DNA from: Methanotrichaceae archaeon
GTDB taxonomy: Archaea > Halobacteriota > Methanosarcinia > Methanotrichales > Methanotrichaceae
DNA length: 33,984 bases
Assembly: GCA_963813075.1 (NCBI GenBank)
Contig: CAWEXU010000022.1
Coordinates: 1 to 33,984 of the forward strand
Direction of reading: 5' to 3'
Shown here: piece by piece, positions 2,472 through 23,570 of the stretch
How the letters are laid out: every line of letters begins with the position of its first letter
Position numbering within the stretch: the first letter of the stretch is position 1
Made by a program: the position numbers and the translations under genes
The notes under the pieces: model-generated
What the model was told of the DNA's origin: nothing
Database searches by the model: none
What the model saw: only the letters and a program-made list of their open reading frames with translations

Positions 2472-3267
2472 TCAAAGCGATGAGCAGGAGACTGTCTGCC
2501 CACCTTCTTGTTCTTTTTTCAGCGCTGCAAAGGAGTGCTTACCCCTGGAATGGGGAAGTGCCTTTTTATTCAGATATTCGAGATGCTGGATTATATCCGG
2601 TAGATAAGATGCCGGGAATCCCAGCACCGCCTCGCCAGAGGCCATGTCTGTGGCATCGCGGCAGCCGTAGCAGCCGAAGCTGAAGTTCAGCCTCCTCTCC
2701 AGATAAAGGTATCACTGTGGTGTCAACACAAGTGGCCTGGAGAACGGCGGTGGAGGTTTGCACCCGCGCACCTCCCCGGGCATGCATATAAGAGAGGACG
2801 ATCCACATCAACTTCTCCACCTCGTCCTCAACCACTACCAGATCCGGCAATTGATCCGCCTTCTCCAGAGGGAAGAGGTGAATTTGCCCGATGGCCCCCT
2901 TCTCCAGATGCGGCATCTGCTCGAACATCTCCTGAGCCACCTTCTCCTCGGAAACAATTCCAAATCCCACCAGGCCTTTTCCCGTGCGCAGTGGTTCTGG
3001 CAGCGGCCGAAATCCAAAGGCTCGGGCAGCAGCCGGACAGGAAATGCCTCCTGCATCCAGCACCACGTTCTGGCCGTGGCGGGCGCGCATGAGTGCCTGG
3101 CAGTAGCGATGGCGATCAAGCACCTTCGCTCCTTCAACTACCTCCTCAGCTTTAAGAAAACGCACTCCAACGGGAGAGGCAAAGAGCCCCAGGATGGTCT
3201 TCATCCGGGCGCCCATCTCTCGCATCTCTTTAATAGCATCTACTGGCATTTCTTCCTGTCTAGACAC
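2472..3267 (-). pseudogene. DUF169 family protein, frameshifted
   Basis: SPVGV..RYCQA..ISCPAA..ATC; after one extra base at about 2705-2707 another frame continues YLERRLNFSFGCYGCRDATD...SCSSL* to 2472. Confidence 0.85.
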
Positions 3268-3622
3268 AGCAACCGCCCTCGCAGCAGCCGCTCTTCTCCT
3301 CAGTCTCCTGTTTTCCTTTTATCTTCCCCTCCTCTATGAGCTGCTTTTTTACTTTGGACCAGATTTTCTCTCTCTTGTAGATCTCTCTTATCGTCTCTTT
3401 ATCGGGGAATGAGATGGCTTCTCCCATGCACAGATTGGCACAGGTGTTGCAGCCCACAATACACTGATTGGGCTTAGCCACCACCGGGCCTTCATCATTC
3501 CATTCGTAGACGTTCCTTCCGCAGTTCATGCACATCCCGCACTTCACGCACTTCTCGCGATCAATGCTGGGATGCCAGTCTATCTTCTCTCTCGGATATC
3601 CAACAAGCCATGCCATATTCAT
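3260..3622 (-). CDS. 4Fe-4S dicluster ferredoxin-family protein
   Basis: CVKCGMCMNC and CIVGCNTCANLC motifs; C-terminal GCCEGGCCV. Confidence 0.9.
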   Translation of the reverse strand: MNMAWLVGYPREKIDWHPSIDREKCVKCGMCMNCGRNVYEWNDEGPVVAKPNQCIVGCNTCANLCMGEAISFPDKETIREIYKREKIWSKVKKQLIEEGKIKGKQETEEKSGCCEGGCCV

Positions 3623-3665
3623 CTACCTCAATTCTATTGTGTTCTTGCCATCTATTGCGTTTCTA

Positions 3666-3845
3666 TCATCGATTGCATGCACATGCTATGAAGGGCTCTA
3701 TTCGCTGCCCTTCTGGGAGGGTTATCAGCAAAGGCTGATTATAGTCCAGGTATTCTGTGGTTGTATCAAGATCTATTTTTATCAGGAAATCTTCGATCTG
3801 ATCGCTCGATTGCTCCATAACCTCTGGCGTCAAAGATAATTCCAT
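3666..3845 (-). CDS. Small acidic protein (59 aa) ending CACNR; missing from ORF track
   Basis: Manual translation MELSLTPEVMEQSSDQIEDFLIKIDLDTTTEYLDYNQPLLITLPEGQRIEPFIACACNR*; co-oriented, 43 nt upstream of the ferredoxin. Confidence 0.5.
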   Translation of the reverse strand: MELSLTPEVMEQSSDQIEDFLIKIDLDTTTEYLDYNQPLLITLPEGQRIEPFIACACNR

Positions 3846-4128
3846 CCCACAACGATCAATATTGGAATTAGCAGATTCTTTTCATTCCACAAAATTTATA
3901 TAATTCCCTGTTTTTTTAACCATTTTTTTCCGCCGTGATTTGAATTATTAGCATTTTTCCTATATCAACTTTATTGGATATATACAAATATCTTAGAAGA
4001 GAGAGAGATTATAGGCCAGATAGCTCTTGCCCGATAATTTGTACAAAAAACTTATATCGAATTACTTTGATATTGGATATGCTACAAAGAAAGCTTAAAA
4101 TCAATATTATTCAAAGGAGTGGTCTGAA

Positions 4129-4911
4129 ATGGGACGAGTGGAAGGAAGAGTGGCAATAATAACAGGATCCACCTACGGAATAGGCGAGGCCATAGCCAGG
4201 GTACTGGCAAAAGAAGGTGCCGTATCCATAATCACAGGCAGGAGCAGGGAAGAAGGAAAGAAAGTAGTAGAGGCTATCCACAGTGCGGGAGGAAGGTCGG
4301 AGTACTACCCCCTGGATGTGACCGATGAGAAGAGGATTGAAGAGGTAACCAAAGCCGTCTACGAAAAATATGGCAGAATAGACATCCTGGTGAACAATGC
4401 AGGCGTGGCAGGTCCCAACAAGCCCACTCACGAGTATGCTCGTGCTGAATGGGAGTGGGTCTTCGATGTCAATGTCACCGGAGCCTTTCTCTGCACCAAG
4501 TATGTTGTGCCTTATATGCAGAGGCAGAAAAGCGGGAATATCGTTTACATCTCCTCCATCTACGGCATCATAGGTGCTCCTGACCTTCCTGCCTATCATG
4601 CCACAAAGGCTGCCAACCGGGTCATGGCCAAGATCGATGCATTGCTTTACGCTAAAGACAATATCCGCGTCAACTCCGTTCATCCTGGTTTCATCTGGAC
4701 GCCACTGGTAGAGAACTTCCTCCAGGAACAGTGCAATAAGTCGGGATTGAGCTGTGAGGAACTGAAGAAGCAACTGGACGCCAAGCATCCCATAGGCCAC
4801 ATCGGCGAGCCGGATGATATCGCATATGGTGTACTCTATCTAGTATCCGATGAAGCCAAATTTGTGACAGGCAGCGAGCTGATCATAGATGGTGGTTATA
4901 CTGCCACCTGA
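4129..4911 (+). CDS. Short-chain dehydrogenase/reductase (SDR)
   Basis: TGSTYGIG, NNAG, catalytic YHATK, IRVNSVHPG, DGG; GGAGTGG RBS. Confidence 0.95.
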   Translation: MGRVEGRVAIITGSTYGIGEAIARVLAKEGAVSIITGRSREEGKKVVEAIHSAGGRSEYYPLDVTDEKRIEEVTKAVYEKYGRIDILVNNAGVAGPNKPTHEYARAEWEWVFDVNVTGAFLCTKYVVPYMQRQKSGNIVYISSIYGIIGAPDLPAYHATKAANRVMAKIDALLYAKDNIRVNSVHPGFIWTPLVENFLQEQCNKSGLSCEELKKQLDAKHPIGHIGEPDDIAYGVLYLVSDEAKFVTGSELIIDGGYTAT

Positions 4912-4932
4912 TCATTAAATATCTAGATCTAA

Positions 4933-5337
4933 GTGATCAATATGTCAGAAACTTTAAAACAAAATGAAAAACCGGGCAAATTCATAAGCACGGTTCTTTT
5001 TACCTGTTCGGGAATTTCAAATACAGGCAAACTTACAGATATAGCGGCCAAAACGTTAAGCTTTCGCAAACCAGGTCTATTTAGGGCAATTCCTGCACAG
5101 AAAGGAGCTGAAAATTTAGAGGATGCCAAACGAGAAGGAGAATTGATTTTTGTCGTCGATGGTTGTGAGGAACACTGCGCCAAAAAGAAACTTGAGGTTG
5201 CAGGATTAGAGGCAGATATGCAGGTTGTTTTGACTCAGATTGGCATAAAGAAAACCAATCCTTCCGATATTAAATCTGAATACGTCGAACAGGTGATAAG
5301 TGCGTTAAACAGCGCAGTTAAATCCATACAGAAATAA
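4933..5337 (+). CDS. DGC-domain putative zinc-binding protein
   Basis: CSGISNTG and VDGCEEHC motifs; start may be ATG 4942. Confidence 0.85.
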   Translation: MINMSETLKQNEKPGKFISTVLFTCSGISNTGKLTDIAAKTLSFRKPGLFRAIPAQKGAENLEDAKREGELIFVVDGCEEHCAKKKLEVAGLEADMQVVLTQIGIKKTNPSDIKSEYVEQVISALNSAVKSIQK

Positions 5338-5885: not shown

Positions 5886-5934
5886 AGCGATAGGCTTTCC
5901 TTCACTCGATGATCTTGTGCGATCAGAATGGATC

Positions 5935-5942
5935 AAAAAAAA
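5935..5942 (-). terminator. Oligo-T archaeal terminator candidate
   Basis: T8 on minus strand about 20 nt after the stop at 5964. Confidence 0.4.
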
Positions 5943-5963
5943 TACCGCGGAGATTTGAGGCTA

Positions 5964-7475
5964 TCAAGCCTTATCGGTCACCTCTATCTCCAGAACATCT
6001 TCAAAGGTTTCTGTATGGCCAGAGGCAGAGGCGGCTATGCTCACTTTGTAAATCCCTGGGGCTACCTTAGCATTCCAGATCCCTACAAATTTATATCCAG
6101 AGGTGCGCAGCAGGCTTGTACTTGCTGCCTCGGAGCCATCGGGGGCGTTTACGATGGCAGTGCAGTGCAGCGCGTTATCCTGACCAGTGGCGCTGGACTG
6201 CGACGTCTTGCCGGAGGAACTCAATTGGATGGTCCCAGATTTGTTTCCAGAGGTACTTGATGTGCCAAGAGCGAATCCTTCAAATCCGCAGGTTGAGCAT
6301 CCCTTAATCGTGAGCTTGACCTCGTCGCCTGAGGAATTGCCTGCATTAGCCATCAGTTTCTCCTGGAAGGATGCCGTTATGGTTGTAGTCGAGCCAGACC
6401 TCACCGGATTGGGCTCGGCCCTGGCCTCTGTCAGCTCATAGCCGAATTTTGGCTGATTTTCCAGCCAGTCCCGCCAGGTATAGAGCCGGGCATCATAACC
6501 GGATAGGGTCAGGGCAAACCATACTAAAGAGGCCTCAACGCCCACATTGGTGTAGACGACGACGGGCCGAGCCTTATCCAGGCCGACAAAAACCTTCTCC
6601 AGATCCTCCTGTGCCCTTACAGTCTCGTCTTCCACCACATTCTCGAAAGGAATGTTAATCGCGCCGGGGATTGAGCCTATGCTGAAGTCTCCAGGCGGCC
6701 TGGCATCCACAATCTGAGCCCCGCCGTTAACGACGAAGTCATAGGTGGCAAGAAGCTCTGGCCTGAGGGCTGGAATGTAGTCGGTTCTCGGCCTCATAGC
6801 AGACACATTGCTGGTGTTTAGTCCGGCTGCTGCCCAGTCTTCAATGCTGCCATCCAGGACTCTGACCTTTTCCTGGCCGAGATACTTGAGAATCCAGTAG
6901 CTGAAGACGGCCGGAGAGGGGCCGCCACCGCAGGGAAGGCACTCGCCTGCAATCACCAGAGAGTCATTTCGAGAAATTCCTGCCTGGCCCAAAAGCTCTG
7001 CGATCTCCCCAACGGATCTGAACCGGCCACCTTCGGCAAAAAAGTGCTCATAGTTGATATTGACTGCCCCTTCGATATATCTTGTCGCGCTGGGGCTGAT
7101 GTCCAGCACAATATCATCAGATAAGACCTCTTGAGGGGATACAAGTGCCTGGGCAAAGTTGCCTGTCCTCACTCTCGAAATACCTCCAGTAGCCGGATCG
7201 CTTTCAGGTGGGACCTGCACCTGCTCAGGAGGCGCATTCTGCGTGGTCAGTGTTATCGCTTCCTTTTCAAGCTGAGCTTTTTGCTGCTGCTCCTGCTCGT
7301 ATGCCTCCTTCTTGGCCAGCCAGCCATCCATATCGGTCCAGTCAGGACAGGTGGGACAAAATTCGCCGGTTTCTGTCCCTGCCAGGACCGGATGGGCTAA
7401 AGCCAGGCAAAGGAGGAGGAATAAGGCCAAAGCCGATGCTGACGCTATAGCTTTTCCGTCTCCGATTTTCCTCAT
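5964..7475 (-). CDS. Exported tandem-rhodanese (sulfurtransferase-like) protein with C-terminal beta-rich extension
   Basis: Signal peptide (LALFLLLCLALAHPVLA); YIEGAVNI, KVRVLDGS, IVDARP..GSIPGAINIP; CPTC, CLPC and CSTC motifs; ORF extends to 7508. Confidence 0.85.
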   Translation of the reverse strand: MRKIGDGKAIASASALALFLLLCLALAHPVLAGTETGEFCPTCPDWTDMDGWLAKKEAYEQEQQQKAQLEKEAITLTTQNAPPEQVQVPPESDPATGGISRVRTGNFAQALVSPQEVLSDDIVLDISPSATRYIEGAVNINYEHFFAEGGRFRSVGEIAELLGQAGISRNDSLVIAGECLPCGGGPSPAVFSYWILKYLGQEKVRVLDGSIEDWAAAGLNTSNVSAMRPRTDYIPALRPELLATYDFVVNGGAQIVDARPPGDFSIGSIPGAINIPFENVVEDETVRAQEDLEKVFVGLDKARPVVVYTNVGVEASLVWFALTLSGYDARLYTWRDWLENQPKFGYELTEARAEPNPVRSGSTTTITASFQEKLMANAGNSSGDEVKLTIKGCSTCGFEGFALGTSSTSGNKSGTIQLSSSGKTSQSSATGQDNALHCTAIVNAPDGSEAASTSLLRTSGYKFVGIWNAKVAPGIYKVSIAASASGHTETFEDVLEIEVTDKA

Positions 7476-7504
7476 TCGAAACAATTTCAAGCAAATCATA
7501 ACCG

Positions 7505-8596
7505 TCACTCCTGGGCGTCGCTGGATCTTTGCTCGATGAGCTGATTTGCCATCCAGTTCTGGTAGCTGTAGAGCCGGGCATCATAGCCCATGATCTCCAG
7601 GGCAAGCCATAAAACAGAGCCTTTGAAGCCCGTGTTTGTAAATGCTACAACCGGTTGCTCTTTATCCAAAATGAAAAAGCGCTCATCCAGCTCATTCACA
7701 TTCCTCAGCTTATCGCCATCAAGGACACTCTCATAAGGAATGCTGATGGCAGAGGGGATCGTTCCCGATCCGTACTCTAAAACTGTCCTGGCGTCTACCA
7801 CTTGAGCCTGGCCGCTCTTCACATAATTATAGCCTCCAATATACTGATCGGTGAATTGAGGTATGTATTCAGCAACAGGCCCAGTGGTCGCATTTGATGA
7901 TACCGGCAGGCCTTTATCCTTCCAGTCCTGCACATATCCGTTCAGGACCCTGACATCTTCATGCCCCAGGGATTTAAGCATCCAGTAGACATAGGCTGAA
8001 GCCGATGGCCCTCCTCCGCAGGGCAGGCACTCTCCATAGATGACCAGGGGATCATCACTGGAGATTCCGGCATTTCCGAGGATCTCTGCCAATTCCGGTA
8101 CGGATTTGAGCGAGTCCCCTTGCAGGAACTCCTGATAAGGAATGGCTATAGATCCAGAGATGTGCTCTTTGGCACTCTCGCTGACATCCAGGAGAACATG
8201 CTCATTTGAGATCTCATCAATCTCAATCATTATCTCATGCCACTTGCTAGTACTCTGCTCAGCGCTCAGATCAGCTCTCACATCTTCCTTAATAGTAGAT
8301 GCAGCACCGTCCTCCTCCTGGCCGTCCTCGCTGCCAGAAGACATATTCCATCTCTGTTTCCTCGATTCTGCGGGCCAATTTGCGCTGGCCTGAGCCTGGT
8401 CGTATATTCCGGTGCCTATCTCATCCAGCTTGGCCATGGGATCCCAGTCGCCGCCGTCATCGCAGCCGCCGCCAAGGGAAGCACATTCAGCCCCGCCATA
8501 TGCGCTCTGCGTAAGGGCCAGGGTAGCCAGCAAAAGAGCGCATGTTATGCTTTTTTTTGCATTTAGAATACTCATATCGCACCTACCTGATTTCAT
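7505..8596 (-). CDS. Exported tandem-rhodanese (sulfurtransferase-like) protein, paralog
   Basis: Signal peptide; HISGSIAIP, GECLPCGGGPS, VVDART..GTIPSAISIP, GYDARLY; start 8596 or 8575. Confidence 0.85.
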   Translation of the reverse strand: MKSGRCDMSILNAKKSITCALLLATLALTQSAYGGAECASLGGGCDDGGDWDPMAKLDEIGTGIYDQAQASANWPAESRKQRWNMSSGSEDGQEEDGAASTIKEDVRADLSAEQSTSKWHEIMIEIDEISNEHVLLDVSESAKEHISGSIAIPYQEFLQGDSLKSVPELAEILGNAGISSDDPLVIYGECLPCGGGPSASAYVYWMLKSLGHEDVRVLNGYVQDWKDKGLPVSSNATTGPVAEYIPQFTDQYIGGYNYVKSGQAQVVDARTVLEYGSGTIPSAISIPYESVLDGDKLRNVNELDERFFILDKEQPVVAFTNTGFKGSVLWLALEIMGYDARLYSYQNWMANQLIEQRSSDAQE

Positions 8597-8895
8597 GCGG
8601 CAAGCTCATCTTTTAACTTTTCTACCACCAGTGAACAGGCTTTTTCGTCATGCAGAGTCTTGGCTGCACACTGAACCGAGCAGCCATCTATGGCTATCAT
8701 CAGGCCAGCTTCTTTGGCTGATTTTACAATTCCTCCGATATGGCCGCCCACACCCGCCAGGCAGAAGAAGCTCGCAGCCTTCTCTTTAGCCAGCTGGATT
8801 GCTGCATCATTCGCGATCTGTCCCACATTCGAGCCGCCTGAGCAGGCTACTACGCGCACATCCATTGAGCTGCAGGTGCATCTCTTCTCACCCAT
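8593..8895 (-). CDS. DGC-domain putative zinc-binding protein (short C-terminus)
   Basis: ACSGGSNVGQ, FFCLAG, AIDGCSVQC; start MGEKRCTC at 8895. Confidence 0.85.
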   Translation of the reverse strand: MGEKRCTCSSMDVRVVACSGGSNVGQIANDAAIQLAKEKAASFFCLAGVGGHIGGIVKSAKEAGLMIAIDGCSVQCAAKTLHDEKACSLVVEKLKDELAA

Positions 8896-8908
8896 AATCA
8901 GGCCACCC

Positions 8909-9145
8909 TTATTTCTGAAGCATCCTCTTGATCTCTTCAACTGTTGCCGTTCTGCCCGCTATCATTGACTTTCCGTCGATGTAAAGGGCAGGGGTCATCA
9001 TCACACCCCGATCCATTATCTCCTGGATGCTGTCAACCTTGACCACCTCAGCAGAGACGCCCAATTCTGCTACTGCTTTCTCCACATTCTTCAGCAGGCT
9101 CTTGCACTTGGCGCAGCCTGTCCCCAGAACTTCAATCTTCACCAT
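8909..9145 (-). CDS. Small thioredoxin-like redox-active disulfide protein (TM0996/MTH895 type)
   Basis: IEVLGTGCAKC ... GVMMTPALYIDG. Confidence 0.92.
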   Translation of the reverse strand: MVKIEVLGTGCAKCKSLLKNVEKAVAELGVSAEVVKVDSIQEIMDRGVMMTPALYIDGKSMIAGRTATVEEIKRMLQK

Positions 9146-9167
9146 TTAATTCGCCTTCCTTTTTAGC

Positions 9168-10265
9168 TCAAATCAGCTCCCAGTAAATCAGCGGAGCAAG
9201 AACGATCAATGTAAGCCCTGTTATCACTCTTATGGCCACTTTGTGATTATTCCGGAAATCGTCCACCTGCTCCGGGCTCATGCCAAGGGTCATGATAACT
9301 CCCAAGAGCAGCACGGGAAGCACTATTCCCAGGTTGTATAACATCAGATATATCAGACCTGACGAGGCATATCCATGGCTGGAAATAACCCCTATGATGG
9401 CGATATAGACCGCTCCTACACAGGGGGCCTTCACTAAAGAGAACAGTGCACCTAATAGGAAATAGGAGCTAAGCTTTTTGCTGGCCAGAGCACCATGCAC
9501 ATACTTCATAGCCCAATCTGTGCGAAAGAGGGAAGCCCGGCTGGCATTCAACCTTCTCGCGTCTTCCATCTGAGTCAAGCCCAGGATCAGCAGTACGGCT
9601 GCCAGAACAAGTCGAAACATAGCAGCAGTGGACTTCTCCTGCAGAACATTGAACAGGCCTACTCCGAATATGTAGTAAACGACGAATATGCCCAGGGAGA
9701 AGAGTGCTATCATGGTCAATAGATCCCTTCTTCGGCCGGAGCTGGCCAGCACGGTGCTCGCCAGAAAGGCCAGTATGGCCAGAAGACAGGGGTTGAAGCC
9801 CGCCAGAAGGCCAGCCGCAAAGACAGTGACAGCGGAAGATAGGTTAAGATTTTGCAGTGCATCTTCAATATTCAGATTGCTATCTGTTTCATCCTCACTC
9901 TTAACGCTGATATTCTCTCCCTGCAAAGCAGCATTGATCAGTATCTTAAGTCTGCTTTCGTTTCCGCCATAGTCTTTGTAGCCGATAACCGAACTGCCGA
10001 TGATTATCGATGGAACATCCTTGACCTTATGCTCCTTTACGATCCTGTGTCCCTCTTCACTGGAAAATATAACCTCTTCAAAGGTGCTCTCCTGGTAATT
10101 AGACAGAACCTCTGTCAGCGCCCTTTCTGCAGCAGCGCACTTGCTGCAACCGGGAGAGGTGATTACAGTTATCTCGCTGTTAGCCCCTGCAGCAGCGGGC
10201 AATAAAACCATGAATAGGGCTACCGTCAGCAGAACTGCTGTGATTCTACATCGTCTGGCCTTCAT
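9168..10265 (-). CDS. Exported thioredoxin/glutaredoxin domain fused to CcdA/DsbD-type membrane domain
   Basis: Signal peptide, SPGCSKC, VP motif; hydrophobic domain with GFNPC and KAPC cysteines. Confidence 0.88.
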   Translation of the reverse strand: MKARRCRITAVLLTVALFMVLLPAAAGANSEITVITSPGCSKCAAAERALTEVLSNYQESTFEEVIFSSEEGHRIVKEHKVKDVPSIIIGSSVIGYKDYGGNESRLKILINAALQGENISVKSEDETDSNLNIEDALQNLNLSSAVTVFAAGLLAGFNPCLLAILAFLASTVLASSGRRRDLLTMIALFSLGIFVVYYIFGVGLFNVLQEKSTAAMFRLVLAAVLLILGLTQMEDARRLNASRASLFRTDWAMKYVHGALASKKLSSYFLLGALFSLVKAPCVGAVYIAIIGVISSHGYASSGLIYLMLYNLGIVLPVLLLGVIMTLGMSPEQVDDFRNNHKVAIRVITGLTLIVLAPLIYWELI

Positions 10266-10379
10266 CTCACTTTTCCCGCATCGCTTAATCTGAATAGGAT
10301 TATGCCGGAGGGAGGTATTCTTCTCCGGCTATTTTTCTCCGATTCTGCTGCTATTCTCATCGATCGGTTCTATAGATCA

Positions 10380-10943
10380 TCAGAATGCTTCATACTGCAA
10401 GACAGCCTTCTCCTCCTCTGATCCCTCTTGGGAGGCGAAGCTTATGGAGGCATCTTCATCAGCCACCAAAACCACTGAGAAAGGACAGCCCTCGCTGCAC
10501 TCTACTGCCGCCTTTTTCACAAAATCTGTAGCATCCCAGGTCTGCCAGCCTGTCTCCTGAATCTCTATGCTTCCCAGGGCCTGCGAATCATATTCAGGCT
10601 GATCCGCCCAGGTAACGGTGTTCATGGCTGCATTATCGTAAAGGTAGAGAGTCACCTTTCCTGGCCTTTCCACCCCTTTGACGTAGATCTTCAGGTTGGC
10701 GGAGCTTATCTGCTCGGGCAGCTTGGTCATGCCGGCAAAGGAGAGATAGGCTATCCTCACAGGCTCTCCCATGTGGGATGAGACCCATACAGCGCTCTCT
10801 TCTCCAAAGCTCTGATCCTCATTCTCGGCGTCGGTATAGGTATCGATATGCAATGCAGGAGTGACTTTCACCGCTCCAGCACAGCTCGCCAGAAGGAATA
10901 TACAGGCCAATGCAATTATGGCCCTAATGGCATAGTATCTCAT
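10380..10943 (-). CDS. Exported protein, DNRLRE/CBM96-like domain
   Basis: Signal peptide; DTY..., AYLSF, SANLKIYV, VTWADQP, WQTWDAT, FASQE pattern. Confidence 0.7.
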   Translation of the reverse strand: MRYYAIRAIIALACIFLLASCAGAVKVTPALHIDTYTDAENEDQSFGEESAVWVSSHMGEPVRIAYLSFAGMTKLPEQISSANLKIYVKGVERPGKVTLYLYDNAAMNTVTWADQPEYDSQALGSIEIQETGWQTWDATDFVKKAAVECSEGCPFSVVLVADEDASISFASQEGSEEEKAVLQYEAF

Positions 10944-10968
10944 TTCATCTCACTCCTTTTATTAATTA

Positions 10969-12060
10969 TTAAACCATGGCACCGTAGAGCATTCCCACCA
11001 ATGTGGATAAGATCACCACCAGGCTGATGTAGACGCTGGCCTTTTTCGCTCCAATGATCCTCCAGATAACTATCATACTGGGTAGGCTCAGGGATGGACC
11101 AGCAAGCAGAAGGGCCAGAGCAGGACCGGCAGCCATAACTCCCGTGCTATAGCCGAAGAGAGTTCCGACTACTGGCACCTCAAGCAATGTGGGCATATAG
11201 AGCAACGAGCCGATCACTGAGGCCAGAAAACAGGCCAGAAAGCTGCTGGTGCCGAAGATTGTCCTGACCCATTCAACCGGCAGGAAGTAGCCGATTACTC
11301 CGGTTACAAATGTGCCCACTACCAGGAGAGGAAAGATCTTCCTGGTCAGCCACCGGGTTTCTCCAAAGAACGCACTCTGCTCCTCTGGCTCGTAATACTT
11401 GTTCATGAGGAAGGCGGCCACTGCTATCAGCACTCCCACAATTATCGCCTTGGGCAGGAGCTCTATGGCACTTGAGGTGGCAACGAGCAGTATGGCCACC
11501 AGAACTGCCATAAATGTGCCTGTGATATAATTTGGCCGGCTCATCTGATCTGGCTCTGGATCGGCCTGAATCATAGAAGGAGCAACATCGGTTTTGCAGC
11601 TTGGGTCATGTTTTTGGAATATGGCCGCCATGATCAGACCTATGACCACGGCCATGATCACTGCGGCCACTGCCCTGGCTATGCCCAGGTCCAGGCCCAG
11701 GACCCTGGCTGTGAGGATGATGGCCATGAGGTTTATCGCCGGTCCGGAGAAGAGGAAGGCCGTTGCCGGCCCAATGCCTGCGCCTCTCTTTTCGATTCCT
11801 GCAAACATGGGCAGGATGGTGCAGCTGCACACTGCCAATATGGTCCCTGAGGTGGAAGCCACGCTGTAGCAGAGCCACTTGGGAGCATCAGCACCGAAGT
11901 ACTTGAGCACAGTATCCTTGTTCAAGAGAGCTGCTATTGCACCGGCTATGAAGAATGCTGGCACAAGGCAGGTCAAGACATGCGCCGAAAGGTATTCAAG
12001 CAGCGTTGCCAGCCCGGCCTCCAAGGCTGCCATGATGGTATAAGTTACCGTAAATATCAT
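10969..12060 (-). CDS. DUF318/ArsP-type permease, intact copy 1
   Basis: ATGA overlap with ArsR stop; AVCSCTILP, FLFSGPAIN, YMPTLLEVP, AGPSLSLP; many hydrophobic segments. Confidence 0.92.
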   Translation of the reverse strand: MIFTVTYTIMAALEAGLATLLEYLSAHVLTCLVPAFFIAGAIAALLNKDTVLKYFGADAPKWLCYSVASTSGTILAVCSCTILPMFAGIEKRGAGIGPATAFLFSGPAINLMAIILTARVLGLDLGIARAVAAVIMAVVIGLIMAAIFQKHDPSCKTDVAPSMIQADPEPDQMSRPNYITGTFMAVLVAILLVATSSAIELLPKAIIVGVLIAVAAFLMNKYYEPEEQSAFFGETRWLTRKIFPLLVVGTFVTGVIGYFLPVEWVRTIFGTSSFLACFLASVIGSLLYMPTLLEVPVVGTLFGYSTGVMAAGPALALLLAGPSLSLPSMIVIWRIIGAKKASVYISLVVILSTLVGMLYGAMV

Positions 12061-12401
12061 CTCCCGATGCCCAATGATTCCTCGAGAATCCTTCCTGCTT
12101 CTGCGAGCTGCGATATCTGCTTTAAGGCCATCCGGTCTACAAGGCGAACCAATTCGAAAACCTGAGGGTCTTTTATGCTGTAGAGCGTCTTTTTCCCGTC
12201 TATTCTGCGATCCAGAATGTCGGCCTCGAAGAGGATGTTCAGATGTTTGGATATGGTGGACTGAGATCTGGAGAAGGCGGGAAGGATCTCGCAAACGCAT
12301 CGCTCGCCCCCGCTCAGGAATTCGAGCAGCTCCAGACGGATGGGATCGGACAGAGCGCTCAGAATCTTTAAGCGCAGTTCAGAGACATTCTTTTGAGCCA
12401 T
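12057..12401 (-). CDS. arsR: ArsR/SmtB family regulator
   Basis: ALSDPIRLELL, ERCVCEI metal-site motif, SQSTISKHL. Confidence 0.92.
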   Translation of the reverse strand: MAQKNVSELRLKILSALSDPIRLELLEFLSGGERCVCEILPAFSRSQSTISKHLNILFEADILDRRIDGKKTLYSIKDPQVFELVRLVDRMALKQISQLAEAGRILEESLGIGR

Positions 12402-12428
12402 GATTAAAGCGCGATTAATGCATATTCA

Positions 12429-12457
12429 GATATAAACTTATCGCCATAAGACGATAA
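12429..12457 (-). promoter_or_regulatory. TATA box plus putative ArsR operator
   Basis: TTTATATC on minus strand (12429-12436), about 28 nt above the arsR ATG; adjacent perfect inverted repeat TTATCG-N8-CGATAA (12438-12457). Confidence 0.65.
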
Positions 12458-13652: not shown

Positions 13653-13678
13653 ATAAGATATCCTCCCACTCTTATCAA

Positions 13679-14749
13679 TCACGAAACGATGGCACCGTAG
13701 AGCATCCCCACCAACGTGGAAAGGATCACCACCAGGCTGATGTAGACGCTAGCCTTTTTCGCTCCAACGATCCTCCAGATAACAATCATATTGGGAAGGC
13801 TCAGGGATGGACCAGCAAGCAGAAGGGCCAGAGCAGGGCCGGCAGCCGTAACTCCCGTGCTATAGCCGAAGAGAGTTCCGACTACTGGCACCTCAAGCAA
13901 TGTAGGCATATAGAGCAACGAGCCGATCACTGAGGCCAGAAAACAGGCCATAAAGCTGCTGGTGCCAAAGATTGTCCTGACCCATTCGACCGGCAGGAAG
14001 TAGCCGATCACCCCGGTTACAAATGTGCCCACTACCAGCAGAGGAAAGATCTTCTTGGTCAGCCACCAGGTCTCTTCCAGGAAGGCGCTCTTTTCCTCTG
14101 GCTGGTAGTATCTATTCATCAGGAAGGCAGCCACTGCTATCAGCGCTCCCACGATTATCGCCTTGAGCAGGAGCTCTATGGCGCTTGAGGTGGCAACGAG
14201 CAGTATGGCCACCAGCACGGCCATGAATATGCCTGTGATATAATTGGGCCGGCTCATTTGATCCGGGTCTGGATCGGCCTGAATCATAGAAGGAGCAACA
14301 TCGGTTTTGCAGCTTGGGTCATGTCTTTGGAATATAGCTGCCATGATCAGACCTATGACCACGGCCATGATCACTGCGGCCACTGCCCGGGCTATGCCCA
14401 GGTCCAGGCCCAGGACTCTGGCTGTGAGGATGATGGCCATGAGGTTTATTGCTGGTCCGGAGAAGAGGAAGGCCGTTGCCGGACCAATGCCTGCGCCTCT
14501 CTTTTCGATTCCTGCAAACATGGGCAGGATGGTGCAGCTGCAAACGGGCAGTATTGTTCCTGAGGTGGAGGCGACGCTGTAGCAGAGTCACTTGGGAGCA
14601 TCTGCGCCGAAGTATTTTAGAACAGTCTCCTTGTTCAAGAGAGCAGCTATCGCACCGGCGATGAAAAATGCTTGCACAAGGCAGGTCAAGACATGCGCCG
14701 AAAGGTATTCCAAGGCTGCCATGATAGTGTGAGTTATCGTGAATATCAT
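13679..14749 (-). pseudogene. DUF318/ArsP-type permease copy 2, nonsense mutation
   Basis: Highly similar to copy 1; Trp TGG changed to TGA at 14588-14590; 8-aa deletion (AGLATLLE); arsR absent upstream. Confidence 0.9.
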
Positions 14750-14777
14750 CTCCCTTAAGGATATTCCCATATGTACA

Positions 14778-14795
14778 TATCGCAATAAAACGATG
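14778..14795 (-). promoter_or_regulatory. Degenerate copy of the ArsR operator
   Basis: TATCG-N8-CGATG in a context homologous to 12421-12460; TATA decayed (tataaac to tatgtac). Confidence 0.55.
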
Positions 14796-16123: not shown

Positions 16124-16213
16124 CAGGACTCTTACCTTTTCATGCCCCAGGTACATGAGGAGTCAGTAGCTGAAGATAGCAGGGGAAAGGGCGACGCCAC
16201 AGGACAGGAACTC
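16124..16213 (-). pseudogene. 90-bp fragment of the exported rhodanese gene
   Basis: EFLSCGVALSPAIFSY*LLMYLGHEKVRVL versus ECLPCGGGPSPAVFSYWILKYLGQEKVRVL (6855-6944); 20/30 aa identical, ungapped. Confidence 0.85.
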
Positions 16214-16243: not shown

Positions 16244-17128
16244 TCACATGGAAGCTAGCGCCTCATATCCTGTCAAGATGTCAAGTAGTTCTGAAGAGAT
16301 GGCATCTTGACGTTGCTTTCGGTAGTTGGCCAAAAGCTCGCTCAAATGCTCCTCTATGTTTCTCTCTGCGGCCTGCATAGACGAAAGCCTGCTGGAATTC
16401 TCGCTGACAAGCGATTCTGCGAATGCACGGTAAAGAGAGAAAAATAGATTCTCTCGGATTAAGGATGAGAACAGTAGATCTGTGTCAATGTAATAGGTGG
16501 GCAAAGATCGTGAATGCCATTCTCTTTCGGCCAGGCTGGCAAGCCATTCGGCATTAACAGGAAAAAGATCGACCATTTGAGGGCTAAATGCTCCCGCGAT
16601 GCCGGCAATGGGCCGGTTGTAAAAGAGAACAATCTTGTTGACATTGCTTTCCAGGCGCCACTGATCAATCTTCGTCAGCACCTTTCCCATAATCTCAGTT
16701 ATGCCCAGAAAATCCCCCGAAAAAGAAAATTGAGCCTCGACCGGTTGGCCTGCATCTTCGAGACGGGCGAAGGCGCGCCCACCGACTGCCAGAGCCCTTC
16801 GCTCTTCATGCTCCATCTCAGCTATCCGGTCTACAGCATAGCGGGCAATGATCTCGTTGAACTTGCCGCATAGCCCCTGCTCCGAGCCGAAGACGACGGC
16901 GCCTAAACTTCTTTTTTTATCCTCTGGTTTAGATGTTAAGAATTTCTTATTATTTTGCAATATAATTTGCAGGCCGAGCTCGATGGTTTTATTATATTCA
17001 CTAATAGAGAGCACCGACTCTTCATATTCCAGAATATTTGCTGAAGAAATTGCCTTCATTATTTTGACTACTGATTGCAGGTCAGTGGCATTTCTAATCC
17101 TTATTTTCGCTTTTTCGAGCTCTGCCAT
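16244..17128 (-). CDS. atpG: N-type F1Fo ATPase gamma subunit
   Basis: SVVKIMKAIS, FGSEQGLCGKFN, SENSSRLSSMQAAERNI, RQDAISSELLDI. Confidence 0.95.
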   Translation of the reverse strand: MAELEKAKIRIRNATDLQSVVKIMKAISSANILEYEESVLSISEYNKTIELGLQIILQNNKKFLTSKPEDKKRSLGAVVFGSEQGLCGKFNEIIARYAVDRIAEMEHEERRALAVGGRAFARLEDAGQPVEAQFSFSGDFLGITEIMGKVLTKIDQWRLESNVNKIVLFYNRPIAGIAGAFSPQMVDLFPVNAEWLASLAEREWHSRSLPTYYIDTDLLFSSLIRENLFFSLYRAFAESLVSENSSRLSSMQAAERNIEEHLSELLANYRKQRQDAISSELLDILTGYEALASM

Positions 17129-17136
17129 ATTGCCAC

Positions 17137-18648
17137 CTATATCTGAAGAATTTCTGTAAATGTTTTTAAGATCAATTCGCGGTCCTCATGGCTTAACTTT
17201 TGGCCCGATGCCATCAATTCATTCAAGCGAGGCAGTTTTTCGCGAAACGCTCTTGCCATCTTTATCTTCGCCGATGCGATCTCCTCCAAATGATGCTCGT
17301 CCAGGATTCCTTCTGTTGCCGCCAGGATAATTGCTATCTGCTCCGGTGCGGGCATGGGATCAAATTGAGACTGTTTCAAGACCTCGCGTATTCGTCGGCC
17401 TCGCTGCAAAATCTTTTGGGTTTCCTCATCAAGCCGGGTACCAAACCTGGTGTAGACCTCCAGACCCTCGAATTGCGAATATGCGAGGCGCAAAGGACCG
17501 GCGACCTCGGCAAAGGCAGGTAGCTGGCTCTTCCCACCAACGCGGGATACCGATAGGCCTACATCAACCGCCGGCAAGATCCCTTTTCTAAAAAGCTCCG
17601 GGGAGAGGTAAATCTGGCCATCGGTGATGGAGATAAGATTGGTTGGGATATAGGCGGAAATGTCCTGGGCCTGGGTCTCAATGATGGGCAGTGCCGTGAG
17701 AGATCCACCGTTGCGATAATGGGTAGCCCTCTCCAAGAGCCGGGAATGTATGTAAAATATGTCGCCTGGAAAGGCCTCCCTTCCTGGAGGACGGCGGAGC
17801 AGCAATGATAGCTCTCGATAGGCCCGAGCATGCCGGGTCAAATCATCATAAACGATTAAGACATCATGTCCCTTCTCAGCAAAGAATTCTGCCATGGTGG
17901 TAGCGGCATATGGGGCGATGAAATTCATGGCAGGCGGGTCTTCACCTGTAGCTGCGACTATGATGCAATTTTCCATGGCATCATTTTTGCGTAGCTCGGC
18001 TTCGACAAGGGCAACCTCCGATTTTTCCTGCCCGATGGAGCAATAAATACAGATTACATCTTTATCTCGCTGATTGATTATGGTATCAATGGCCATGGAG
18101 GTTTTGCCGGTTTGCCGGTCACCTAAGATGAGCTCGCGCTGGCCACGGCCAATGGGAATCATGCTATCCACCACCATTGTCCCCGTCTGAAGTGGAACAT
18201 TAACTGCCGCCCGCTCCATTATCGAGGGAGCCTCCCTCTCAATGGGCATTAGTTGCATGGTCTGGATGCTTCCACCTTCGTCCAGCGGCCTGCCCATGCA
18301 GTCCACGACTCTGCCCAAGAGTTCCTCGCCCACAGGCACTTCCATAATACTTCCAGTTCTGCGTGCGATCTGTTTGGCTTTAATGTTTTCACTTTTACTA
18401 AGCATGATGACGGCAACTTCCTCCGGATCGAGGTTGAAGACCATACCGTAATTGTCTCCAGGAAAGCGTATGAGCTCCTCGGATCCTGCATTAGGCAGTC
18501 CTTTGATGCGAACGACGCCTTTGCCCACAAAGGTCACCATGCCGATCTCTTCAATCTTTAGCTCGGGCCTATAGACCCTAATATTTTGCTCAATTGCCGC
18601 AAAAGTATCGGCCAGAACCTCCCGGATTCCCGAAGCATCTTTTTTCAT
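17137..18648 (-). CDS. atpA: N-type F1Fo ATPase alpha subunit
   Basis: [37 protein letters not shown]; start 18648 or 18669. Confidence 0.97.
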
Positions 18649-18665
18649 ATTACCCCAAAATGGTT

Positions 18666-19430
18666 TCACAAAGTTCTCTTCTCAAGCCAGCGGGAAAAAT
18701 CAGCTTCAAGAGAATCAAGATATCCGGAAATGCTCCAGGCAATTTCTACATTCTTGGCGCTCATCACCATGCCGGATATCAAATCATCTTCCTTCTCAAA
18801 TTGCACTCTTACATCTGCCTCGGCATGACTTGAAAGAACATCCTTGATTTTTTGCTGAATATCCTCAGGAACTATAAAGGCGCTACGTATGGTAATAATC
18901 TGTTCGGAATCTTTAAAAAAATCCTTAATCGTCTTCCTTTCAGGTTCTTCCAAATTTTTTAAGCGATTGATAAAAGCAATCATTATTTGCCGATCCAGAT
19001 CTTCATTGGCAAGGTCTTTGAGAGCCCGCCTGGAGATGGCATATAGCTGCTGTCCACTATATTTCCTCAAATCACTGATAAAATCATCTCTTTGGCGCTG
19101 CAAATCCATTTGCCACTCTATTTTTGTCTCTTCGATCTCGTCTCTTGCCTTTTTCATCATATCCGCTCTAAACTCTTTAGCATCTTCTTTTGCTTCGATG
19201 AGCAGCTCTTCATGCTCAGCGGACAGCTCCTCTTTCTTCTTGCGATAAGACTGGGCCTCAGCTTGCGCTTCTCTCTCTGCATTTTCTGACTCTTTTTGGC
19301 GGGAGATGATTGCATTCTCTCTTTCGTCCATCAATTTGAGCAGCGGCCCGTATAAAAAATGCTTCAAGAGAAACACTAGCAGTGCAAAATTCACAACCTG
19401 GGCAGCAATGGTAAAATAATCAATCTGCAA
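18666..19430 (-). CDS. atpF: N-type ATPase b subunit with delta-like C-terminal extension
   Basis: TTG start with GGAGG; N-terminal [20 protein letters not shown], long coiled coil, C-terminal [14 protein letters not shown]. Confidence 0.92.
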
Positions 19431-19439
19431 GATTTCCTC

Positions 19440-19706
19440 CTAACGAATCACATAATTCCAGAAGGGATTGGAGAAGATCAGAATTATGGATATTACAAAA
19501 CAATAGATTGCAGTCGATTCTACCATGGCAAGGCCTACGAATAGGGTCCGGGTTATTACATTGGCCTCGTCAGGCTGCTGGGCAATGGCACTTAAGGCCC
19601 GGGATAGCGCCCAGGCTTCGCCTATTGCTGGTCCAACGGAACCAATGGCAATAGTGAGGCCCGAAATAATTATGGATGCAATACCTATAGTCTCAATAGC
19701 GGCCAT
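19440..19706 (-). CDS. atpE: N-type ATPase c subunit, Na+-binding signature
   Basis: GSVGPAIGE, AQQP loop, AMVESTAIY; start 19706 or TTG 19712. Confidence 0.95.
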   Translation of the reverse strand: MAAIETIGIASIIISGLTIAIGSVGPAIGEAWALSRALSAIAQQPDEANVITRTLFVGLAMVESTAIYCFVISIILIFSNPFWNYVIR

Positions 19707-19708
19707 TT

Positions 19709-20413
19709 TCAAACACCTCTTGTTGATAATTTTTCCTTTTCTTTATCCCCTGTCGAACTTCCAGATACGATATACACGGTAGCCAGGACGGCAAAAATAT
19801 AAGCCTGTACCTGCCCAATCAACATGCCAAAAAGGTTCATAACAACAGGCAAAAACAACGGCACAATGGAAAACAGGACTGCTACCAGCAAATTTTGACT
19901 CATCATATTGCCAAAAAGCCTGAGGGCCATTGCCATTGTGCGGGAAAATTCTCCAATAATATTAAATGGGAGCATCAGTACGGAGGGCTGGATGTAGCGC
20001 TTGAAATAATCGGCCGCTCCCTGCTCGGCAATACCATAAAGGGGAACTGCAAAAAAGACACATATGGCCAGCGCCAGCGTAGTTGATAGAGAACTGGCAG
20101 GAGAACGATAGCCGGGAACGATGGCAAGCAGGCTGGACACTGAGATAAATAAAAACAAAGTTCCTGAAAAGGGGATATATCGTTCAGAAGCTCTGCGGGC
20201 TATTTCTGCTATCTCGCTTCTCATATAACCGATAATAGTCTCCATGAGGGCTTGCCTTCGTGAGAACGGCGGGTCAATAGAAAGCTGGCGCGTTGAAAGC
20301 CAGGCGAGGGATATCAGCAGCGCCATAACTATCCAGGTGGTGACAATCGTTTCATTAAGTGAGGATGCTCCCCATTTCCAATAAATAATTTCATCAGGAT
20401 TTATCTGGACCAT
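19709..20413 (-). CDS. atpB: N-type ATPase a subunit
   Basis: MLPFNIIGEFSRTMAMALRLFGN, QAYIFAVLATVYI. Confidence 0.95.
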   Translation of the reverse strand: MVQINPDEIIYWKWGASSLNETIVTTWIVMALLISLAWLSTRQLSIDPPFSRRQALMETIIGYMRSEIAEIARRASERYIPFSGTLFLFISVSSLLAIVPGYRSPASSLSTTLALAICVFFAVPLYGIAEQGAADYFKRYIQPSVLMLPFNIIGEFSRTMAMALRLFGNMMSQNLLVAVLFSIVPLFLPVVMNLFGMLIGQVQAYIFAVLATVYIVSGSSTGDKEKEKLSTRGV

Positions 20414-20415
20414 TT

Positions 20416-20703
20416 TCAATGCGCCTCCATTTTTGAGCGGAGAGAAAGCTTTCGAATCAATGCGATCTTGGTCAGCACAAAGCCTGCCAGACAGAGCAAT
20501 AGCGCTTCGATTCCACTGCCAATAATCAGATAGAAACCCAGGATGCAAACCAGGGACCTGGCAAAAAAGCTACCCAGACTCAATATAGTTGGCTGCTGAG
20601 AATGAGGGAGGCGTTTTATTGTCAGCCAAAGGCCGCCAAAGTAGAAGACGCCAAGGAGGGCTCCCATGAAAAAGCTCAGAGCGAGCAAAAATGCACTATT
20701 CAT
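20416..20703 (-). CDS. atpR: N-ATPase subunit AtpR
   Basis: 95-aa hydrophobic protein, YFGGLWLT and SFFAR motifs, at the atpR position of the operon. Confidence 0.85.
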   Translation of the reverse strand: MNSAFLLALSFFMGALLGVFYFGGLWLTIKRLPHSQQPTILSLGSFFARSLVCILGFYLIIGSGIEALLLCLAGFVLTKIALIRKLSLRSKMEAH

Positions 20704-21004
20704 TCATTATGTCCTCTTCAATCTCTTTTTGCCCCTTTTTGATCCAGTACCATGCGTTTGCACAGCCTATGACCAGGCCCACGAATAAAAGAGTAAGCGT
20801 CCAGGAGATAGGTCCGTGATAATTGATGTCTATCCAAACTCCCAACAAGACGCCTACAAGAGCTGGGACTGCCACAGACCATCCGATGACGCCCATCATG
20901 CCCAGGCCAAACCATATGCCTCTGGCTCTTCCTCGCCGACCCTTGATCTTGCGCGCCTCTTTTGCGGCGACTTCATCTTCGAAGCTTTTGCGATGGTGGT
21001 CCAT
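20696..21004 (-). CDS. atpQ: N-ATPase subunit AtpQ (AtpZ/gene 1 family)
   Basis: GLGMMGVIGWSVAVP..GVWID..GCANAWYW. Confidence 0.88.
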   Translation of the reverse strand: MDHHRKSFEDEVAAKEARKIKGRRGRARGIWFGLGMMGVIGWSVAVPALVGVLLGVWIDINYHGPISWTLTLLFVGLVIGCANAWYWIKKGQKEIEEDIMNE

Positions 21005-21007
21005 TAT

Positions 21008-22800
<1,793 letters not shown>

Positions 22801-22901
22801 TTACTACCAGGACTATTGAGCAACAGCAAAAAATACAGAAATCTTAGCTTGAGGATTGTATTGGTTCCGGCACGTTAATCCCAGATCAAACAGCAAGGAA
22901 T

Positions 22902-23159
22902 CAAACATGGGCAGGATGGTGCAGCTGCATACTGCCAGTATCATCCCTGAGGTGGAAGCGACGCTGTAGCAGAGCCACTTGGAAGCATCTGCACCGAAAT
23001 ATTTGAGTACAGTCTCCTTGTTCAAAAGAGCAGCTATTGCACCGGCGATGAAAAATGCAGGCACAAGACAGGTTAAGACATGCGCCGACAGATATTCCAG
23101 CAGTGTTGCCAGTCCGGCCTCTAAGGCTGCCATGATGGTATAAGTTGCGTGAATATCAT
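22902..23159 (-). pseudogene. DUF318/ArsP-type permease copy 3, 5' part only
   Basis: Matches copy 1 from the start to ...CSCTILPMF; homology ends at about 22902; 1-nt loss near the start. Confidence 0.9.
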
Positions 23160-23222
23160 CTCCTACAGCTTATTGACTCCTCGAGAATCCTTCCTGCTTC
23201 TGCGAGCTGTGATATCGCCTTG
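23156..23222 (-). pseudogene. arsR 3' remnant
   Basis: ctcgagaatccttcctgcttctgcgagctg is identical to the arsR 3' end near 12080-12110; rest of arsR and its promoter are absent. Confidence 0.85.
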
Positions 23223-23264
23223 ATCATCGCCTTAATATTTCTGAATGATGGATACCTTTCCCGG

Positions 23265-23570
23265 ATGGCGATAAAAAGGGAGGACTGGTTGCAGATCAAT
23301 AAGGAGCTTTCTCTGCTCTATGAAATGCACGAGGCTGCTATCTCGCAGACGGGAAAATGCCGGGATTTCAACTCCCGCGCCAGTATCTTATTGCAGCATC
23401 TGGAGGAGCTTGAGGCCTTTGATATGGCTGACAGAGTGATGGACCTTCTGGCCGGCTGCAACCCCAAGGACACTTCTCCCTGTGACAGTCGCCTGAGCAC
23501 AAAAGCCTCTCTGGAGAGGCTGCAAGAGAGGATCAAAAATAAGATGAGTGAGCGGGAAAAAGACGGATAG
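23265..23570 (+). CDS. Hypothetical helical protein (101 aa, three Cys)
   Basis: MAIKREDWLQINKEL...; start supported by the ATG of the duplicate at 12552. Confidence 0.8.
   Translation: MAIKREDWLQINKELSLLYEMHEAAISQTGKCRDFNSRASILLQHLEELEAFDMADRVMDLLAGCNPKDTSPCDSRLSTKASLERLQERIKNKMSEREKDG

Follow-up and report, generated by a model that had tools for sequence, protein, structure and literature searches.

The stretch of DNA analysed here, the window, is positions 1 to 33,984 (33,984 nt) of contig CAWEXU010000022.1 from a Methanotrichaceae archaeon (assembly GCA_963813075.1). Its minus strand, on which all operon features below lie, carries eight open reading frames (ORFs): arsR, a permease gene, a DNRLRE/CBM96 gene, a thioredoxin-CcdA fusion (Trx-CcdA), a small thioredoxin (small Trx), a DGC gene, rhdA and rhdB. 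A first-pass annotation had claimed eight co-directional genes with tight junctions; the ORFs were found there, with gaps in operon order of -4, 25, 114, 22, 13, -4, and -4 nt. Pfam assigns HTH_5, ArsP_1, CBM96, DsbD_TM with a weak Thioredoxin_3, Thioredoxin_3, DGC, and Rhodanese twice, the last matching RhdA and RhdB in two stretches each. The DNRLRE_dom and MTH895/ArsE-family thioredoxin models of NCBIfam exceed their cut-offs. Export was judged by eye from signal-like N-termini and by hydropathy, where the short h-region of RhdA falls below threshold. The operon is composed of a known core (arsR, permease, small Trx, DGC) and a duplicate of a Methanotrichaceae-wide envelope module (Trx-CcdA, DNRLRE, and RhdA/RhdB); the same module is also found at a conserved ArsR-free locus.

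RhdA (7505..8596) and RhdB (5964..7508) are predicted exported proteins made up of two rhodanese domains each, in the TST/MPST fold. The tandem-rhodanese fold is matched by Foldseek at E 1.8e-16 and by a wide fold search at Z 25.4 (root-mean-square deviation 3.1, 233 aligned). In both proteins, an inserted GECLPC places a CLPC motif (8018-8029 in RhdA, 6930-6941 in RhdB) in the N-domain loop, which is normally inactive. The C-domain loop is Cys-less, reading TNTGFKGS in RhdA and YTNVGVEA, continuing as TNVGVEAS, in RhdB. The N-terminus holds C38/C45 in RhdA and a CPTC arm (7347-7358) in RhdB, and RhdB ends in an Ig-like domain with a CSTC insert (6288-6299). In the structure model of RhdB, all three CxxC motifs are on flexible parts.

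The catalytic C-domain cysteine (Cx4R/T) is missing in 31/31 aligned RhdB sequences, where Thr or Ser is found instead, and a further 27-row alignment has no Cys at this position. C190, P192, and C193 of the N-domain loop (CxPC) are invariant in the same 31. Active rhodanese domains require a loop Cys, according to the available text of PMC10135228. By this motif test, RhdA and RhdB would not be classical sulfurtransferases, which contradicts their public annotation as thiosulfate/3-mercaptopyruvate sulfurtransferases; they may instead work as dithiol scaffolds. Two exported rhodanese-fold proteins were correctly anticipated in the first-pass annotation; their tandem domains, the loss of the catalytic Cys, and the location of the CxxC in the other domain were not. 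Of the metal(loid) or sulfur redox role that it proposed, sulfur redox in the classical sense is unlikely, given the outcome of the motif test. In the top 150 representatives from a search of 1.84 billion proteins, 65 have the N-loop CxxC without the catalytic Cys, 14 more have the CxxC with a C-loop absent from the alignment, 24 have the catalytic Cys only, and 44 have neither. Both features occur in 3, two of which are from clusters named Methanophagales or ANME-1. RhdA and RhdB thus have the two-domain fold in common with TST, MPST, SseA, and CysA (3aax, 1uar, 4jgt), but differ in being exported, in the change of catalytic Cys to Thr, in the N-loop CxPC insert, in the N-terminal Cys arm, and in the Ig-like domain of RhdB.

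The Ig-like tail of RhdB gave just generic Ig-like matches in the wide fold search (Z about 10-11). This tail (window 5964-6440) is 55% identical to that of a relative, G005, versus 98% for the core, and 78-83% identical to more distant loci. It appears to be a module swapped by recombination, with loose ends at 6425. A CxxC after the signal peptide was also considered as a general Methanothrix trait and rejected, as only 15 of 553 candidate ORFs match; about half of these belong to the Rhd family or are its stand-alone Ig paralogue, whereas the others are apparently unrelated or spurious ORFs.

Trx-CcdA (9168..10265) is composed, by Pfam and hydropathy, of a signal peptide and an exported thioredoxin domain (CSKC, 10137-10148) fused to CcdA. 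Its six transmembrane helices and two Pro-Cys cysteines, C160 and C282, are those of the CcdA/DsbD family, and the cysteines are kept in 47/47 and 48/48 homologues, respectively. As a member of that family, CcdA would take electrons from cytoplasmic thioredoxin and deliver them to a CxxC protein outside the membrane. The six helices, both PC cysteines, and an outside thioredoxin partner are common to this protein and the CcdA/DsbD/ScsB relays (5vkv). Here, the thioredoxin is instead fused N-terminally behind a signal peptide, and the candidate clients, unlike those of the known relays, are a CBM96-fold CxxxC protein and pseudo-rhodaneses. All 65 of 65 family genomes with a completeness of 90% or more have a Trx-CcdA match, which is fragmented in one of them. 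Its range is wider than Methanotrichaceae, with matches in 82/301 phylum genomes, many over the membrane part only. In the truncated CcdA, the thioredoxin domain has been lost in frame and purifying selection persists in relaxed form (dN/dS 0.22 vs 0.08).

The exported DNRLRE/CBM96-fold protein (10380..10943; Pfam and NCBIfam) possesses a CxxxC formed by C149 and C153 (10485-10499), which are conserved in 37/37 and 37/38 homologues. The family named by the first-pass annotation was confirmed, and the conserved CxxxC had been missed. Its structure model (pLDDT 89.9) has as top fold matches the chondroitin and alginate carbohydrate-binding modules 8wab and 7vbo, and a sequence search of the PDB with this protein returned nothing significant. 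The DNRLRE-CxxxC protein is found in 8/8 family genomes and 0/292 others. At permease-type loci, it lies beside 11/12 full Trx-CcdA genes and 0/8 truncated ones. It is the tightest genomic partner of Trx-CcdA, tighter than the rhodaneses.

Locus types were assigned for the best 80 of 146 rhdB-like loci, where named relatives are Methanotrichaceae; 43 are of the window's type, 31 are of a second type, and 6 are unplaced. The synteny search bore out an association of rhdB with the arsR-permease core. The 38 permease-containing rhdB loci, which occur in Methanothrix and Methanocrinis, hold arsR in 37, small Trx in 37, DGC in 33, an rhdA-like gene in 26, and DNRLRE in 13. The second type (31/80) has neither ArsR nor permease and is made up of a beta-helix (NosD-like) gene, rhdA2, rhdB2, and a subtilase. 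Trx-CcdA2 and DNRLRE2 are divergent in 20/31 of these loci, and 5 of the remaining 11 are cut by contig ends. The ArsR-free type recurs in further genera, and its RhdB2 proteins form their own clade in a quick tree. Trx-CcdA is dispensable next to rhdB because a copy is present elsewhere in all 65 of the near-complete family genomes.

In a third paralogue, RhdC, the N-terminal Cys pair is the only one retained, and the loops have no Cys. Across 30 RhdC loci (1.5-kb flanks, some cut by contig ends), acr3 is beside 25/30, arsR beside 24/30, and a divergent exported-Trx/CcdA pair beside 23/30. The acr3 product is an SBF-family protein, which we take to be Acr3. The Rhd family has therefore joined ars operons twice. 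That it was recruited into ArsR operons on two separate occasions, both times beside a CcdA conduit, is what argues best for a role with metalloids. Genes resembling dsrE/F/H follow the RhdC operon, and acr3 and arsM-like genes recur in the neighbourhoods of the family.

At E ≤ 1e-30, the Rhd family is found in 9/9 Methanotrichaceae, 7/43 genomes of one ANME-1 family, and 0/278 other phylum genomes, and the 24/24 genus relatives drawn carry 2 to 15 Rhd matches. ANME-1 homologues have retained the catalytic Cys and also carry Cys pairs at the N-terminus and in the N-loop, along with a CxxC in the Ig domain. Exported rhodanese-Ig proteins such as P0241 and P0250 (Methanophagales/ANME-1 by source names) share with RhdB the signal peptide, the N-terminal and N-loop Cys pairs, and the Ig CxxC, and differ in retaining the catalytic Cys. 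The N-loop pair and an intact catalytic Cys occur together in 9/10 ANME-1 relatives, the C-loop of the tenth having been missed by the motif search. The simplest history would start from an exported sulfurtransferase that already had accessory dithiols, with the catalytic Cys then lost in Methanotrichaceae. No match to arsR, permease, Trx, or CcdA was found in the 15 ANME-type loci fetched, and only 4 short loci came from scanning metagenomes with the ANME-1 protein. Three ANME-1-type loci (L209:641-10163, L210, and L213) encode, close to mcrB, an exported rhodanese-Ig whose catalytic Cys is intact and whose N-loop has a Cx7C; these loci also hold YcaO, radical SAM, PNPOx-like, U32, and methyltransferase genes. 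A link of this protein to sulfur modification of methyl-coenzyme M reductase (MCR) or a cofactor is possible.

The ArsR/SmtB repressor (12057..12401; Pfam and NCBIfam) has two Cys only, the alpha3 CVC (C35, C37), and no alpha5 His site. Both are kept in 60/60 homologues, and the third Cys of CxC(xxC) is absent. The alpha3 CVC is a candidate As(III)-ligand motif. The DUF318/ArsP_1 permease (10969..12060; PF03773, E 1.4e-68) has a CSC motif (C78-C80, 11821-11829) and invariant H27 and C31, all kept in 67/67 homologues. The permease scores below the SaoE and SO_0444 cut-offs and reaches no NCBIfam equivalog. A two-Cys MAs(III) repressor of ArsR type is on record (bioRxiv 10.1101/2022.01.25.477449, in part), and ArsP proteins export organoarsenicals (PMC6205960, in part). 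By family, export of MAs(III)/Rox(III) would be a candidate function.

The small cytoplasmic MTH895/ArsE-family thioredoxin-like protein (8909..9145) carries GCAKC and scores 104 bits with TIGR00412 (cut-off 62); both Cys are kept in 70/70 homologues. Cysteines of the relay are conserved across homologues throughout. The DGC-domain protein (8593..8895) was correctly placed in the operon by the first-pass annotation and is not intact, since alignment with homologues reveals a 25-residue in-frame internal deletion. Pfam covers model positions 2-71 of 106, so the full-length DGC domain (PF08859) is absent, and the conserved Cys are retained despite the 25-codon loss. Sludge populations have a further 156-nt deletion at 8642-8799, its joint seen in contigs of 4 runs from 2 studies. 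The DGC gene is probably decaying.

The same four core genes occur in the same order (compared by Pfam family, not by sequence) in the arsR5-arsP-arsE-DGC operon of Pseudodesulfovibrio mercurii ND132, which differs in having no CcdA, DNRLRE protein, or rhodanese. That operon is up-regulated by arsenic, as the available part of bioRxiv 10.1101/2022.10.17.512643 describes. The sole match of a plasmid search, a Leptolinea plasmid record, has arsR-trx-permease without ccdA or rhodanese. In other families of the class, 8 permease loci have permease-Trx(-DGC), with a rhodanese within 14 kb in 0/8.

The TATA box and palindromic operator that had been proposed upstream were also found. The TATA box (TTTATAT, 12430..12436) lies about 30 nt before the arsR ATG, which suggests a leaderless transcript or one with a short leader. 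Directly upstream, at the position of the transcription factor B recognition element, is the palindrome ATCG-N8-CGAT (ATCGTCTTATGGCGAT, 12440..12455), a putative ArsR site at arsR's own promoter. Its arms are only 4 nt and were missed by a repeat finder, and the evidence for an operator is conservation: the palindrome is perfect in 31/37 arsR upstream regions (36 relatives and the window). Of the 48 such palindromes in the genome, only 4 have a TATA box behind them, and each of these 4 stands in front of an arsR copy. A T-rich tract 3' of rhdB (5930..5945, limits approximate) is likely an archaeal terminator. Of 22 sequence runs considered for expression, 4, all from one study, are recorded as RNA. 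Three of these 4 and 1 doubtful run consist of contigs with flat depth across genes and spacers in records of up to 124 kb; these look like DNA and are therefore uninformative on transcripts.

The preferred reading, held tentatively and just short of being judged probable, is an ArsR-controlled efflux system joined to a CcdA-fed surface dithiol system, in which pseudo-rhodaneses act as thiol scaffolds and which is induced by trivalent arsenic or similar thiol stress. ArsR would sit on the palindrome beside the TATA box until displaced by a soft thiol ligand, for which a trivalent arsenical is the likeliest candidate, and the DUF318 permease would export the toxic species. A cytoplasmic thioredoxin would supply electrons to the pair of CcdA cysteines, these would hand them on to the fused outside thioredoxin, and the final recipients would be the Cys pairs of the DNRLRE CxxxC and the N-terminal arm of RhdA/B. 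The reduced RhdA/RhdB pairs may then bind or clear exported metalloid, or restore surface thiols damaged by it. We infer the inducer, transcript, export, direction of electron flow, each protein-protein step, and ligand. A bolder version, which we consider rather doubtful, is that Methanotrichaceae rewired an exported sulfurtransferase into a CcdA-fed dithiol family derived from envelope thiol machinery and drawn twice into ars operons. Acting as a branch of arsenic defence outside the cytoplasm, it would capture As(III), MAs(III), or thioarsenicals, or process them chemically, once efflux has brought them into the space that separates membrane from sheath.

A redox link through the RhdB arm is favoured by an arm correlation and a thioredoxin fusion. 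The N-terminal CxxC arm is present at 10/11 permease-type loci with full Trx-CcdA (the eleventh has CxxxC), versus 6/24 without. In 6 sequence clusters of one lineage (83-100% identity), a WCEPC thioredoxin fused to RhdB replaces the CPTC arm. An RhdA-RhdB fusion also exists (P0302). Arm losses are spread over several parts of the tree, with kinship and recombination limiting what can be inferred. Complex prediction of the Trx domain (28-118) with RhdB (44-354) scored 0.06 against a mark of 0.32 with the controls not folded, so this says nothing either way.

Several observations weigh against the efflux and surface dithiol reading. The Fisher p of 0.0006 for the arm and Trx-CcdA association is overstated, as the loci are kin. 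Fusions of the Rhd family with unrelated domains exist as well, so the thioredoxin fusion counts for less; P0130 has a pseudo-rhodanese behind a transglutaminase-like domain and P0177 has one behind a Cys-rich unknown region. Median dN/dS of RhdB is similar with an adjacent Trx-CcdA (0.16, 4 pairs) and without (0.19, 18 pairs), and the CLPC loop of RhdB is modelled with low confidence (pLDDT <50 at 191-194). Full Trx-CcdA is adjacent in only 12/38 permease loci, with truncated CcdA in 8 and none or a remnant in 18. The eight-gene form is therefore a minority. Overall, the interpretation in the first-pass annotation is partly supported, and its terminal acceptor role for the rhodaneses is a candidate one. 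Methanosarcina homologues of GCPKC-type small thioredoxins do not reduce insulin and have no known function (PMC6262447, available part), making the cytoplasmic electron donor uncertain. The ND132 operon is induced by adenosine dialdehyde as well (same partial source, bioRxiv 10.1101/2022.10.17.512643), and induction is therefore not arsenic-specific. Finally, as the ArsR-free locus shows, the four-gene module has a role apart from arsenic.

That role leads to the strongest alternative, envelope or sheath thiol housekeeping, which is unlikely as an account of the operon. The module would maintain or isomerise surface and sheath disulfides, and the ArsR copy would boost this under thiol stress and never touch metalloid. 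The conserved ArsR-free locus with its beta-helix protein and subtilase (31/80) fits this, as does the confinement of the Rhd family, among the phylum genomes searched, to Methanotrichaceae and one ANME-1 family, both lineages with sheath proteins. The available text of PMC11576556 describes sheath proteins throughout the Methanotrichales and in some ANME-1, with disulfide-linked hoops. In its Table S5, a signal-peptide 'bifunctional thiosulfate sulfurtransferase' appears along with a DsbD/thioredoxin pair, at 13/13 Methanotrichales versus 0/35 controls; this sulfurtransferase is likely the Rhd family. Neither the CxPC motif nor the operon is discussed in the part of PMC11576556 that was available. 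In genome G043, a CxPC paralogue, which carries the primer site published for Mthe_1071, follows a 575-aa, 60.9-kDa MspA-like gene. However, this neighbour has no homologue in the window's genome or the other fetched loci, so the linkage is not conserved, and MspA is probably not the main sheath protein (PMC11576556, in part). At the cut-off, the family is also absent from the rest of the phylum genomes searched, among which the sheathed Methanospirillum group is expected, and housekeeping does not explain RhdC between arsR and acr3.

A second alternative, which appears quite unlikely, is a persulfide or polysulfide reductase with a swapped site. C193 would take sulfane sulfur from polysulfide or thioarsenical, C190 would resolve it to H2S, and Trx-CcdA would re-reduce the pair. 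When the N-domain is superposed on a catalytic domain, C193-GGGPS aligns with the catalytic CRIGER loop, though five residues are inserted between C193 and the strand end and the Cx4R/T position of the N-loop is not filled by Arg or Thr. For MPST, the sulfur acceptor is probably thioredoxin (PMC10135228, in part), and the dsrE/F/H-like genes after the RhdC operon would also suit such a reductase; RhdC itself is without any loop Cys. In 9/10 ANME-1 relatives the N-loop pair stands beside an intact catalytic Cys, and the pair therefore arose as an accessory and not as a replacement.

Very unlikely is a non-arsenic metal (Cu, Zn, Cd, Hg, Co/Ni) as the substrate, with paired CxxC motifs making up a four-Cys metal site, held reduced by CcdA so that it can be loaded, and with the permease as a metal exporter. 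The alpha3 CVC is shared with Cd/Zn sensors. CadC and SmtB typically have extra Cys or His ligands, and the ArsR here has none of that kind. RhdB does have three CxxC on flexible parts, the only NCBIfam hits of the permease are SO_0444 (Cu/Zn) and SaoE, both below cut-off, and the ArsP family has two clades of probably different function (PMC6205960, in part). Against a metal stand the recurring acr3 and arsM-like neighbours and the arsenic induction of the ND132 analogue.

Reduced arsenic is the more toxic form relative to As(V), and reduction outside the cell would yield it. An arsenate or organoarsenical reductase, either Acr2/Cdc25-like or of an ArsEFG-like pathway, is highly improbable: rhodanese-fold arsenate reductases exist and have Cx5R (PMC10135228, in part), which is in neither domain loop (GECLPCGGGPS, TNTGFKGS, TNVGVEAS), and while the small Trx is of the MTH895/ArsE family, the CcdA part matches ArsG only weakly (40 bits, cut-off 200).

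Shewanella ArsEFG reportedly combines an ArsE-family thioredoxin and a CcdA-like membrane protein in an ars context, as found here. The window has the ArsE-family thioredoxin (TIGR00412) and no ArsG membrane protein (NF040495, 40.1 bits, cut-off 200), and it has extra exported proteins. The selenoprotein TsoB with ArsR-type TsoR (NF045694, NF045707), a rhodanese joined to a DsbD-like membrane domain, is listed in a table of the review PMC13188914. TsoB differs in being bacterial, selenocysteine-containing, and a single polypeptide; in the window, the genes are separate, there is no in-frame TGA, and the weak hits (17.8 and 20 bits) are far under the cut-off of 805. In the tables of a transcriptome of direct interspecies electron transfer (PMC10470525, in part), which includes no arsenic condition, Mthe_1071 and Mthe_1274 show modest 1.6-1.8-fold changes with magnetite, and in the accessible part of one Methanothrix paper Mthe_1071 is just a quantitative PCR target. 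No description of this operon or of the CxPC motif was found in the literature searched (subscription papers were outside its coverage). The papers searched likewise contain no account of the rewired exported family, its CxxxC-CBM96 partner, the parent locus free of ArsR, or the twofold recruitment; the parts are of known kinds.

Beyond the operon, window 2566-5337 adjoins it with a second DGC gene, SDR, ferredoxin, and DUF169; ferredoxin, SDR, or DGC homologues recur next to the operon in several relatives. A small His/Cys-rich protein with two 78-nt repeats (1101-1385) lies behind another ArsR-type gene and before an ABC ATPase, and by eye it looks like a metal-binding peptide. On the minus strand at 16244-22770 is an alternate F1F0 (N-type) ATPase operon, with TIGR03305, TIGR03306, and TIGR03166 above cut-off. 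Decayed ars operon fragments lie on either side of it, namely a broken permease with its degenerate operator (13669-14794), what remains of a rhodanese (16124-16213), and leftovers of an arsR tail and a permease start (22813-23343). At loci L073/L106 and L107, the same N-type ATPase comes after the ars operon.

The window's genome (G000) has four arsR copies with 93-100% identity and near-identical promoters on contigs C6, C21, C22, and C26. The ubiA-PQ-loop-arsR order is seen on both C21 and C26, and either a duplication or an assembly that mixes strains could account for this. At C16:79606-83212, a trx-DGC-rhdA-rhdB copy is present without arsR, permease, or operator, like loci L041-L043, L123, and L124. 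An operator-like site at C30:461166 on the minus strand (score 24.4) has no ORF of at least 70 aa behind it.

Methanothrix is a main acetate-consuming methanogen in digesters and sediments, where its metalloid resistance and envelope redox are little studied. If the relay is true, pseudo-rhodaneses and a CBM-fold dithiol protein would be new client types of CcdA, and ars systems would gain a step outside the membrane. The same proteins would also be candidates for the unidentified helpers of sheath thiol chemistry.

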